Of a DNA stretch of 64,000 nt, positions 52,760-56,262 are shown piece by piece; position 1 is the first letter of the stretch; every line of letters starts with the position of its first letter. The position numbers were made by a program, and so were the translations under genes. Origin of the DNA: Devosia sp. Its GTDB lineage: Bacteria > Pseudomonadota > Alphaproteobacteria > Rhizobiales > Devosiaceae. Under the pieces are notes generated by a model, which had not been told where the DNA came from, did no database searches, and was given only the letters and a program-made list of their open reading frames with translations. The stretch spans positions 3,790 to 67,789 of the forward strand of contig JBDSHC010000088.1 in assembly GCA_039918675.1 (NCBI GenBank), in the 5' to 3' direction.

Positions 52760-52876
52760 GCCAGCATTATGCAGTATTTCGTAGAATGTTTCCAGATTAT
52801 CCCGGATTGTGGAAAAGCCTCCGGTCGGCTCTAACGCCCTCAACGGCATGTGGCCGCATCAAATGAGGGTTTGAAC

Positions 52877-53263
52877 ATGGACTTTCTGACGTCTCTGAAC
52901 TTCTGGCTCTGGGCCGCCGCGGGCCTGCTGGCAGTCGCCTACGCGATGGCCGGTGGCATGAAAGCCACCCAGCCGATCGACAAACTCGCTGTGCAAATGA
53001 AATGGCCCTCTGACTATCCGCGCCTCACGCGATTCATCGGCGTTTCCGAGGTGCTGGGTGCCGTTGGGTTGATCCTGCCGCTGCTGACCGGGATTTTCGT
53101 CTGGCTTACGCCGCTGGCTGCGATCTGCCTGGTGGCCGTACAGATTCTGGCCATCGGCTTTCACGTGATGCGGAAGGAACCGCAGGTGCTGCCCGTCAAT
53201 TTCGTGCTGCTGGCTCTCGCGGCCTTCGTCGCCTGGGGCCGCTGGTCGCTGTTCGGCATGTGA
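52877..53263 (+). CDS. DoxX family membrane protein
   Basis: GGMKA, FIGVSEVLGAVGLILP and LTPLAA; divergent from LysR. Confidence 0.9.
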   Translation: MDFLTSLNFWLWAAAGLLAVAYAMAGGMKATQPIDKLAVQMKWPSDYPRLTRFIGVSEVLGAVGLILPLLTGIFVWLTPLAAICLVAVQILAIGFHVMRKEPQVLPVNFVLLALAAFVAWGRWSLFGM

Positions 53264-53294: not shown

Positions 53295-53483
53295 ATGGCG
53301 GAAACCTCCGCCATGAAGCCGCCCAGCAAAAAGACTCCGGCCAAGAAGCCCAACCTCGCGGCCAAAGCGCTAAGCGATCCGAAGTTCCGGCCGAAAATCG
53401 TCGAGAAGCCAGATGTGTACAAACGGCGTCCAAAATTTAGCCAGAAGTTGGTTGAAACAGACGATGACGACAGGATGAACTGA
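53295..53483 (+). CDS. Small basic protein resembling alternative ribosome-rescue factor ArfA
   Basis: NLAAKALSDPKFRPKIVEKPDVYKRRPK resembles the ArfA core (N..ALLHDPLFRQRV...SYxRK, recalled from E. coli). Confidence 0.55.
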   Translation: MAETSAMKPPSKKTPAKKPNLAAKALSDPKFRPKIVEKPDVYKRRPKFSQKLVETDDDDRMN

Positions 53484-53651
53484 ATTTCAGCTAATTCCTG
53501 CAGATAACTGCAACTCAGGTGAGAACAGCGGGTCACCTTAGATAGTTCTGTTCATGAAGCATTCAGGCGCTGCACGTCAGTTGCAGCGGCATTCTGCCGG
53601 TGCCAATGTCCCGGCACGCTCGGCGCGGAGGGCGCGCCTCTGGAGGCTTTC

Positions 53652-54209
53652 ATGTTTGGCTGGATCATTCTCGGCATTATCGTTGCCGCCGTCGCCTATG
53701 GCGTCTTCGCCTACAACAATCTCGTGCGGCAGCGGCAGCTCAGCCAGGAAGGCTGGTCCGGCATCGATGTGCAGCTCAAGCGCCGCGCCGACCTCATCCC
53801 CAATCTGCTCGAATCCGTGAAGGGCTACATGGCCCATGAGCGCGATACTCTCGAAGCCGTCACCAAGGCGCGCACTGCCGCGCAGATGGCGCAGAACGGC
53901 ACGCCGGAGCAGCGCGCCGCTGCTGAAGGTCAACTCTCCACCGCACTCGGCAAGCTCTTCGCCGTCGCCGAGGCCTATCCGGATCTCAAGGCCAGCCAGA
54001 ACTTCATGCAGTTCCAGGGCGAACTGTCGAACACCGAAAACGAGATCCAGCTGTCGCGCCGCTACTACAATGGCACGGCCCGCGATCTGAACACGGCGGT
54101 CGAGTCCTTCCCCTCCAACATTCTCGCCAACTTCTTCAAGTTCGAGAAGGTCCAGTACTTCGAACTCGAGAACCCGGCCGACCGCGCCGTGCCGACAGTG
54201 AAGTTCTAG
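53652..54209 (+). CDS. lemA: LemA family protein
   Basis: YNNLV, WSGIDVQLKRRADLIPNL, AEAYPDLKA, RRYYN and FPSN. Confidence 0.96.
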   Translation: MFGWIILGIIVAAVAYGVFAYNNLVRQRQLSQEGWSGIDVQLKRRADLIPNLLESVKGYMAHERDTLEAVTKARTAAQMAQNGTPEQRAAAEGQLSTALGKLFAVAEAYPDLKASQNFMQFQGELSNTENEIQLSRRYYNGTARDLNTAVESFPSNILANFFKFEKVQYFELENPADRAVPTVKF

Positions 54210-54234
54210 GCAACGGACGCCACTCCACCACGAT

Positions 54235-54341
54235 GTCAGTCCCGCGCAGGCGGGTATCCAGTTCGAACCAACCACAGGGTCGACAATGCTTCACCTCATC
54301 CGGCAACATCTGTCCTGGATTCCCGCCTGCGCGGGAATGAC
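54235..54341. repeat. Palindromic intergenic repeat, family A (complete)
   Basis: 27-bp arms GTCAGTCCCGCGCAGGCGGGTATCCAG / CTGGATTCCCGCCTGCGCGGGAATGAC (2 mismatches), 53-bp spacer; each arm is itself a hairpin. Confidence 0.9.
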
Positions 54342-56262
54342 AAAGCGAACCGTGGCGGCGCTCGTGCTGCTGGTCTTCGCGGCGACTGCGCTTCCCGCGC
54401 TCGCCGAAGAGCAGATCCTTTCCTACATCACCAACACGACGCTCCGCATCGATGGCTCGGTCGACGTGGTCGAGACCATCGAGGTCAATTCCGAGGGTGA
54501 CCAGATCCGTCACGGTATCTACCGCGACATCCCCCTCACCATGATCAACGAAGACAAGTCGCGGCTTCGTTCGGACCTGCGCGTGCTTGAGGTAAAGCGC
54601 AACGGCGCATCCGAGCCTTACAGCGTCGACAATATCGGCGGCGGCTTCAAGCGCATCAAGATCGGCGATGGCGACGTCTTCCTCGATTACACCACGCACA
54701 TCTACACCATCCACTATACCATGACCCGCATGGGTCGCTTTTTTGACGACCATGACGAGCTCTACTGGAACGCCACGGGCAGCTACTGGAACTTCCCGAT
54801 CCTCAAGGCGACGGCGACGCTCAATTTGCCGCCCGGCGCCGTCGTCGGCGACACGGTGGGCTATGAAGGCGCACCTGGCATCGGCACCCCATCGGCGACG
54901 GTGGAGCGGAAATCCGACACGTCCGTCGCCTTCCGCTCGACCCGCATACTGCGGCCCGGTGAGGGTCTGTCGGTCGCGGTCAAGTTCCAGAAGGGCATTC
55001 TGGTCCAGCCGCAGGGCCTCACTGCCATCGGCTATTGGTTGTCGGATCATCGTGAGCTGGTGTTTCCCGGTGTCGCGGTGATCCTTGTTCTGCTCTACAA
55101 TTTCTTTGCATGGAACGCCGTGGGCCGCGACCCGCACCGCGGCACGATCATTCCGCTCTTTCATCCGCCGCAGGATATGTCGCCGGCGCTGGCGCACTAT
55201 GTCTCGGGCATGGGCTTCAAGAAGAGCGGCTGGACCGCCTTCATTGCCTCGATCTTCGATCTGGGCGTCAAAGGCCTCGTCCAGATCGACAAGGTCGGCA
55301 GCAAGACCAACATCAACATTACCAATGCCAGCCCCACCGGCACCTTGCCAGCGGGCGAAAGCGCCCTCTACAGCTTCATCAAATCGAAGGGGCAAGTGTC
55401 GATCGACAAGACCGACGGCCCGCAGCTCAACGCCAAGCGCGGCGAACTGGTCTCGGCCATCGAGCGCGAGAACCGCGAGATCTATTTCAAGAACAATGTG
55501 CTTTACACGCTGGGTGGCGCTGCCCTGGCGGCGCTCATGCTGCTGGTCATGATCTGGCTCGATGTGCTCGACCCGGTGTTCCTCATCGTCGCCGCCGTAA
55601 CGGCAGTGATCGTTGGTGTGATCATCGGCACCGTGTTCAGCGGCGGCAAGGGCGGCAGCATTGTCGGCAAGCTGTTCGGCGGCGTGTGGCTGGTGATCAT
55701 CGCCATCAACATCTTCGGCTCGGGCATCAGCGCCATCTCAGGCATCCGCCTCGATACCGGTTTCGTTGCTGCCGCCTCGATCCTCATCATCGAGATCGTC
55801 TTCGCCATCCTGATGCGCGCCCCCACCATCCAGGGCCGCAAGCTGATGGACCAGATCGAGGGCTTCAAGATGTACCTCGATACCGCCGAGAAGAACCGCC
55901 TCAACTATGTCGACAAGGGCGAGCCGCAAATGACCATCAAGCGTTTCGAGTCGATCCTGCCGTTCGCCATCGCCCTCGGGGTTGAGAAGCCGTGGTCCGA
56001 TCGCTTCTCCGCCGACCTCGCGCGCAACGCCGTGGCCGACGCCACCGGCGGTACTTACTCGCCCTATTGGTACAGCGGCGGCGACTGGTCGACTGCCGGC
56101 TCCTCAGGTGATTTCTCGAAGTCGGTGTCCTCAATGTCGACCGGCATGGCCGCCGCGATGATCGCCGCGCAACCGTCCAGTTCGTCGGGCTCGGGCTTCT
56201 CGAGCGGCGGTGGCGGAGGGGGTGGCGGTGGAGGCGGCGGCGGGGGTGGTGGCGGCTGGTAG
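54337..56262 (+). CDS. DUF2207 membrane protein
   Basis: Signal peptide, RHGIYRDIP, DELYWNATG, LPFAIALGVEKPW and a Gly-rich tail ending in W; usual partner of lemA. Confidence 0.93.
   Translation: MTKRTVAALVLLVFAATALPALAEEQILSYITNTTLRIDGSVDVVETIEVNSEGDQIRHGIYRDIPLTMINEDKSRLRSDLRVLEVKRNGASEPYSVDNIGGGFKRIKIGDGDVFLDYTTHIYTIHYTMTRMGRFFDDHDELYWNATGSYWNFPILKATATLNLPPGAVVGDTVGYEGAPGIGTPSATVERKSDTSVAFRSTRILRPGEGLSVAVKFQKGILVQPQGLTAIGYWLSDHRELVFPGVAVILVLLYNFFAWNAVGRDPHRGTIIPLFHPPQDMSPALAHYVSGMGFKKSGWTAFIASIFDLGVKGLVQIDKVGSKTNINITNASPTGTLPAGESALYSFIKSKGQVSIDKTDGPQLNAKRGELVSAIERENREIYFKNNVLYTLGGAALAALMLLVMIWLDVLDPVFLIVAAVTAVIVGVIIGTVFSGGKGGSIVGKLFGGVWLVIIAINIFGSGISAISGIRLDTGFVAAASILIIEIVFAILMRAPTIQGRKLMDQIEGFKMYLDTAEKNRLNYVDKGEPQMTIKRFESILPFAIALGVEKPWSDRFSADLARNAVADATGGTYSPYWYSGGDWSTAGSSGDFSKSVSSMSTGMAAAMIAAQPSSSSGSGFSSGGGGGGGGGGGGGGGGGW

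Follow-up and report, generated by a model that had tools for sequence, protein, structure and literature searches.

ArfA (YhdL; Pfam PF03889; PDB 5MDV, 5MGP, 5U4I and 5H5U), known from Gamma- and Betaproteobacteria, is a ribosome rescue factor that is disordered off the ribosome, and E. coli, which also has tmRNA and ArfB, has all three rescue systems. The RF2-interacting part of ArfA comprises residues 15-31, and the residues of its KGKGS motif are individually not essential (PMC6299226). Binding to RF2 involves F25 and the strand formed by residues 27-30; the KH motif makes contact with the mRNA entry channel (PMC8012679). Two other small basic peptides, BrfA of B. subtilis and ArfT of Francisella, bring release factors to non-stop ribosomes and are regarded as independent inventions (PMC8012679, PMC6299226). 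BrfA combines a KH motif with an origin from non-stop mRNA; ArfT has a real stop codon and does without ArfA-style control, which makes it a precedent for an unregulated factor. Published surveys have reported ArfA only in Gammaproteobacteria, some Betaproteobacteria and a few Bacillus species, and one survey recorded arfA in none of 2,376 Alphaproteobacteria genomes (PMC11633108). Reviews anticipate more small release-factor-recruiting factors that would be difficult to detect by sequence. The new element described here is an acidic-tail, hairpin-less variant of an ArfA-like gene which, unlike the surveyed arfA genes, is located in Alphaproteobacteria.

The window (the whole stretch of 64,000 nucleotides of a Devosia sp. 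contig that was analysed) holds a small open reading frame between the genes for a DoxX_2 membrane protein and LemA (Table 1). A reading made from the letters alone, hereafter the sequence-only reading, had described it as a 62-aa ORF with an ArfA-like core and an acidic tail, and that frame (53295..53483, + strand) was confirmed. The 62-codon version starts at ATG 53295 and contains a second ATG at 53313. Translation probably starts at the latter: the N-termini of homologs align to this Met, and the one public gene call identical to the protein read from it (P0001) has 56 aa, so the protein is probably 56 aa long.

Table 1 Positions of the small gene, its parts and its neighbours, numbered from the first letter of the window
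Feature	Position	Strand	Basis or remark
DoxX_2 membrane protein, upstream neighbour	52850..53263	+	Pfam
Perfect 14-bp inverted repeat, 4-nt loop	53289..53320	+	-28.5 kcal/mol; z -7.05; 0/200 shuffles
Probable coding sequence of the small gene	53313..53483	+	56 aa + TGA; ORF list, identical public gene call, homolog N-termini
ArfA-like core, residues 11-45	53343..53447	+	hhalign, shuffle control, PDB profile search
Acidic tail, E48-D53	53454..53471	+	Alignments, tail charges
Weak hairpin over the stop codon	53471..53500	+	TGA 53481-53483 inside; -7.5 kcal/mol
lemA, downstream neighbour	53652..54209	+	Pfam
DUF2207, after lemA	54286-56262	+	Pfam

The ORF is a real gene. The opposite view, that it is a chance open frame in GC-rich DNA, could draw on the start codon being placed inside a strong hairpin and on the signals around it: no clear Shine-Dalgarno sequence was seen for the small gene, and a scan found neither a promoter adjoining it nor a terminator after it on the + strand. 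This view is already contradicted by conservation at the protein level, as the frame is unbroken in dozens of genomes at a fixed locus, with 25 to 60% protein identity and invariant N, A, L, P and R positions, and we give it a negligible probability. In the family alignment N14, A17, L20, P27 and R38 are invariant, and R13, A16, F25, P33 and Y36 nearly so. A six-frame search of related genomes recovered single-copy homologs in 43 of 64 Devosia genomes, or 25 of the 30 high-quality ones. A profile search of public proteins yielded 304 relatives, nearly all from Devosia and named 'hypothetical' or 'DUF7230 family protein'; two of them bear the JGI automatic label 'stalled ribosome alternative rescue factor ArfA'. 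A narrower search for related loci returned only Devosia and Devosiaceae records, and the Devosia-type profile matches 11 of 201 genomes of the window's own order, spread across five families. As a separate observation, no copy was found at E 1e-5 in four Devosia genomes that are 98-99% complete (G716, G018, G003 and G731).

The position of the gene is also conserved. In at least three genera it always lies directly upstream of the lemA-DUF2207 pair (window 53652-56262, L002, L005, L006, L010, L012, L086 and L087), and the upstream neighbour differs between species, being DoxX, MoCF_biosynth, glyQ or an S49 peptidase.

Taken alone, the window protein had no Pfam or NCBIfam match, and a word-based homolog search with it returned only itself. 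A full phmmer search against 1.8 billion representatives gave 4 matches, the best at E 3e-6. Most of its Devosia-family relatives (50/53), close ones included, match Pfam DUF7230 (PF23876, to which no function is assigned), whereas the window protein itself is below detection by this model. Against a cut-off of 27 bits, L002, which is 60% identical to the window protein, scored 29.9 bits, and L006 and L014 scored 32.3 and 47.2. Since PF23876 does not match the window protein and its relatives lie above the cut-off, membership rests on transitive homology, and by this route the protein is provisionally placed in DUF7230 as a member of a Devosia clade. Language-model features in the ESM Atlas likewise placed it with DUF7230 clusters, at 0.91. 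The literature searched makes no mention of DUF7230. Members of the family from another class are unlike the Devosia ones: they have an N-P-V-A-K motif, their tails are short and not acidic, and their 3' hairpins are strong. In a sample of 121 genomes from one order of another class, DUF7230 was present in 6 and PF03889 in 5, with an overlap of 0.

The ArfA-type relationship proposed in the sequence-only reading found support when family profiles were compared, though not for the single sequence. The PF03889 model (gathering score 25.5 bits) did not match the window protein at E values up to 10. Run over the whole genome, it missed this protein and gave a sole match by chance, within a 316-aa frame elsewhere. 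Three of 53 relatives reached only E 0.025-0.12, or about 12 bits. The Devosia family profile, searched against all PDB sequences, retrieved E. coli ArfA chains at E 0.006-0.05; all six sequences with E < 0.06 were such chains, and the single match other than ArfA, in the first search, had an E of 2.9. Using hhalign, Devosia profiles were then compared with an ArfA profile made of 27 canonical genes, which PF03889 had detected among 401 sampled genomes of the phylum. The probabilities were 82% and 69% (P 1.1e-5 and 4.3e-5), over 35 columns corresponding to ArfA residues 11-48. The observed scores were 29-31, far above those of 200 column-shuffled nulls (mean 8.5, sd 1.7, maximum 18.9) and of a reversed-profile control (6-8), and composition therefore does not explain the match. 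By database E-value (0.006-0.03), however, the resemblance to ArfA is marginal, and the peptide is basic and of low complexity, with only about 35 of its residues covered. A seven-sequence DUF7230 alignment from outside Alphaproteobacteria (six of the sequences being from another class) did not align with ArfA (P 0.13) and gave only a weak match to the Devosia profile (P 0.02). The bridge through non-alphaproteobacterial DUF7230 members therefore rests on the Pfam model.

ArfA and the window protein are similar in size, and up to residue 34 they keep the same spacing from the N-terminus. The core shares N14, L20, D22, P23, F25 and R26 with E. coli ArfA at the same positions, F25 being nearly invariant in the Devosia family as well. 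The PKIV stretch occupies the place of the RF2-pairing strand of ArfA (Q27-E30); in the family a P-K-V/I-E/V stretch aligns to it, and the pattern common to both proteins is a strand-like x-K-I/V-x. Y36 and R38 of the window protein correspond to ArfA Y39 and R41, and K41-F42 to K44-H45, with KH kept in most relatives and KF in the window copy. These ArfA positions, namely F25, the strand, Y39, R41 and K-H, are the ones that published work connects with RF2 and with the mRNA channel. These likenesses, together with the profile comparisons, support the small gene product being a remote homolog of ArfA. There are also clear differences. The window protein lies below every PF03889 threshold. The KGKGS loop ahead of the Y-x-R segment, invariant in all 27 canonical ArfA proteins, is missing from the Devosia family, which has in its place a stretch that is three residues shorter and reads D-P-K-x or K-P-D-V. 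The C-terminal tail is conserved and acidic in the Devosia family, whereas that of ArfA is poorly conserved and hydrophobic. BrfA shares its KH motif with most relatives of the window protein, but no sequence relationship of the window protein to BrfA or ArfT was detected; ArfT was set aside as a true relative, its KKGGSTNKK motif being different.

The genome encodes an alpha-type tmRNA, ArfB (180 bits) and two release factors, so the peptide would provide a third route of rescue, as ArfA does in E. coli. A distribution complementary to that of ArfB was ruled out by the presence of ArfB in the same genome. PF03889 itself was found in 36 of the 401 genomes of the phylum sample and in none of those belonging to the window's class.

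We favour, with moderate confidence, the view that the gene encodes a 56-aa basic peptide of the DUF7230 family, remotely homologous to ArfA, which would carry out ArfA-like, RF2-recruiting rescue and be made from a normal message. As does ArfA, the peptide would bind ribosomes stalled at the 3' end of stop-less mRNAs, its basic Y-x-R...K segment probing the empty mRNA channel. Its N-terminal half (NLAAKAL-x-DP-x-FR-PKIV) would pair with the beta-sheet of RF2, and the RF2 thus brought in would release the nascent peptide, as a back-up to the tmRNA and ArfB of the same genome. We infer that the whole ORF, acidic tail included, is translated up to its real stop codon and that the gene is not built to yield a truncated message. 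If so, the gene adds to the case for DUF7230 as a family of small release-factor-recruiting proteins, and one that reaches into Alphaproteobacteria.

A basic peptide of this kind could also bind ribosomes or nucleic acids in another role, for instance together with the LemA-DUF2207 membrane pair, its likeness to ArfA then reflecting ancestry or convergence without rescue. The strictly conserved lemA-DUF2207 synteny across genera would fit such a role, but common descent is enough to produce synteny within a single bacterial family. The genome is already equipped with tmRNA and ArfB; however, the same applies to E. coli, where they coexist with ArfA. Two further points argue against a role outside rescue: conservation is highest in the columns whose ArfA counterparts contact RF2 and is not confined to basic residues, and orthologs of sister genera retain a non-stop gene design for which rescue factors are the only known examples. 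We regard this other role as rather unlikely and do not rate it lower, because KGKGS is lost, the His of the KH motif is absent, the E-values are marginal and the acidic extension is atypical and without precedent.

The sequence-only reading had gone further and had suggested, calling this part weak, that with a hairpin straddling its stop codon the gene may be under a control similar to that known for arfA. The hairpin exists in the letters as described, with the TGA inside it, but it is weak, not above chance in its context and not conserved. It has only 9 base pairs, interrupted by internal loops. As an isolated 30-mer it reached a z of -2.5, and 5 of 200 shuffled sequences folded as well; within 121-133 nt of context the z was -0.4 to -0.9. 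We then compared the 3' ends of homologous genes over the 90 nt ahead of the stop and the 43 nt past it. The 17 Devosia-family genes had a median z of -0.55, with z < -2 in a single gene, versus a median of -4.2 and z < -2 in 18 of 22 for canonical arfA, which served as a positive control. Canonical arfA 3' regions reach -30 to -59 kcal/mol and have near-perfect in-ORF stems of roughly 12-25 bp, against -7.5 kcal/mol here. ArfA-style non-stop control is thus not supported for the Devosia gene or for the genus: unlike arfA, the gene lacks a 3' hairpin and uses a real stop codon.

In its complete form, the earlier proposal makes the peptide an ArfA-type factor that builds up only while tmRNA is in short supply, its mRNA being cleaved or ending at the stop hairpin. 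Stop-straddling hairpins are indeed present in canonical arfA as well as in DUF7230 genes from other lineages, and this gene has one over its stop codon too. Its weakness, its unremarkable z in context and the single structured 3' end among 17 homologs all weigh against the proposal, as does the tail beyond the core, whose conserved character implies that it is translated. We therefore consider the complete proposal very improbable.

The in-ORF terminator or hairpin design of arfA is nevertheless present in relatives of the window gene. In a sister genus, the positional ortholog upstream of lemA-DUF2207 (L086) has an intrinsic terminator over codons 43-55 of 59 and L-L-A-A as the last residues of its ORF; the 3' end of another positional ortholog (L087) is likewise structured. 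L090 carries an in-ORF terminator (codons 36-48 of 52) and L091 a hairpin over its stop. In-ORF terminators or hairpins over the stop are also found in members from other families and in the DUF7230 members of another class. The same locus within one bacterial family thus comes in two designs, one with an in-ORF terminator and the other with an acidic tail and a real stop codon. As a natural experiment, these two designs among same-locus orthologs lend themselves to asking what restrains back-up rescue factors.

Of note, many ArfA and DUF7230 ORFs with a 3' hairpin or terminator end in ...A-A, such as L-L-A-A, R-Q-A-A or L-M-A-A (L086:1501-1677, L080:1480-1620, L081:1489-1629, L043, L044, L049-L052 and L054). 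This ending resembles the end of the ssrA tag and may mark the rare full-length product for degradation.

The acidic tail carries a net charge of -2 to -5 in all 16 Devosia members examined, and members of the main subgroup have a D-P motif after the K-H-K segment. As its character is conserved, the tail appears to be translated and under selection. Among 32 genes compared, acidic tails came without 3' structure (the Devosia genus, L014, L088, L089, L092 and L023), and non-acidic tails came with 3' structure in 9 of 11 cases. Related genes are not independent, so the acidic side counts as about four or five lineages. This pattern raises the possibility, which we put forward tentatively and think rather doubtful, that Devosia and at least three other high-GC lineages lost non-stop-mRNA control and that the acidic tail replaced it at the protein level. 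More generally, the tail probably took over some regulatory or specificity role. It could be an auto-inhibitor that masks the basic channel-binding segment; alternatively, it could mimic mRNA at the entry site or serve as a degradation signal. Any of these three roles would keep the factor off normal ribosomes. We know of no rescue factor with an acidic tail after its channel-binding segment.

A much stronger hairpin than that at the stop codon, which the sequence-only reading had missed, is found at the other end of the gene (Table 1). This perfect repeat lies 26 nt past the doxX stop codon, and no T-run follows it. Its 5' arm contains ATG 53295 and its 3' arm ATG 53313. A dispersed repeat was ruled out, as the palindrome is present in a single copy in the genome and absent from the homologs. 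The hairpin may mask the start codon, terminate or stabilise the doxX message, or serve as a protein-binding palindrome. A separate palindromic element lies in the lemA-DUF2207 spacer (54235-54360 of the window) and gives W-I-P-A-C-A-G when translated on either strand, in the ORFs at 53577-54275 (- strand) and 54286-56262 (+ strand).
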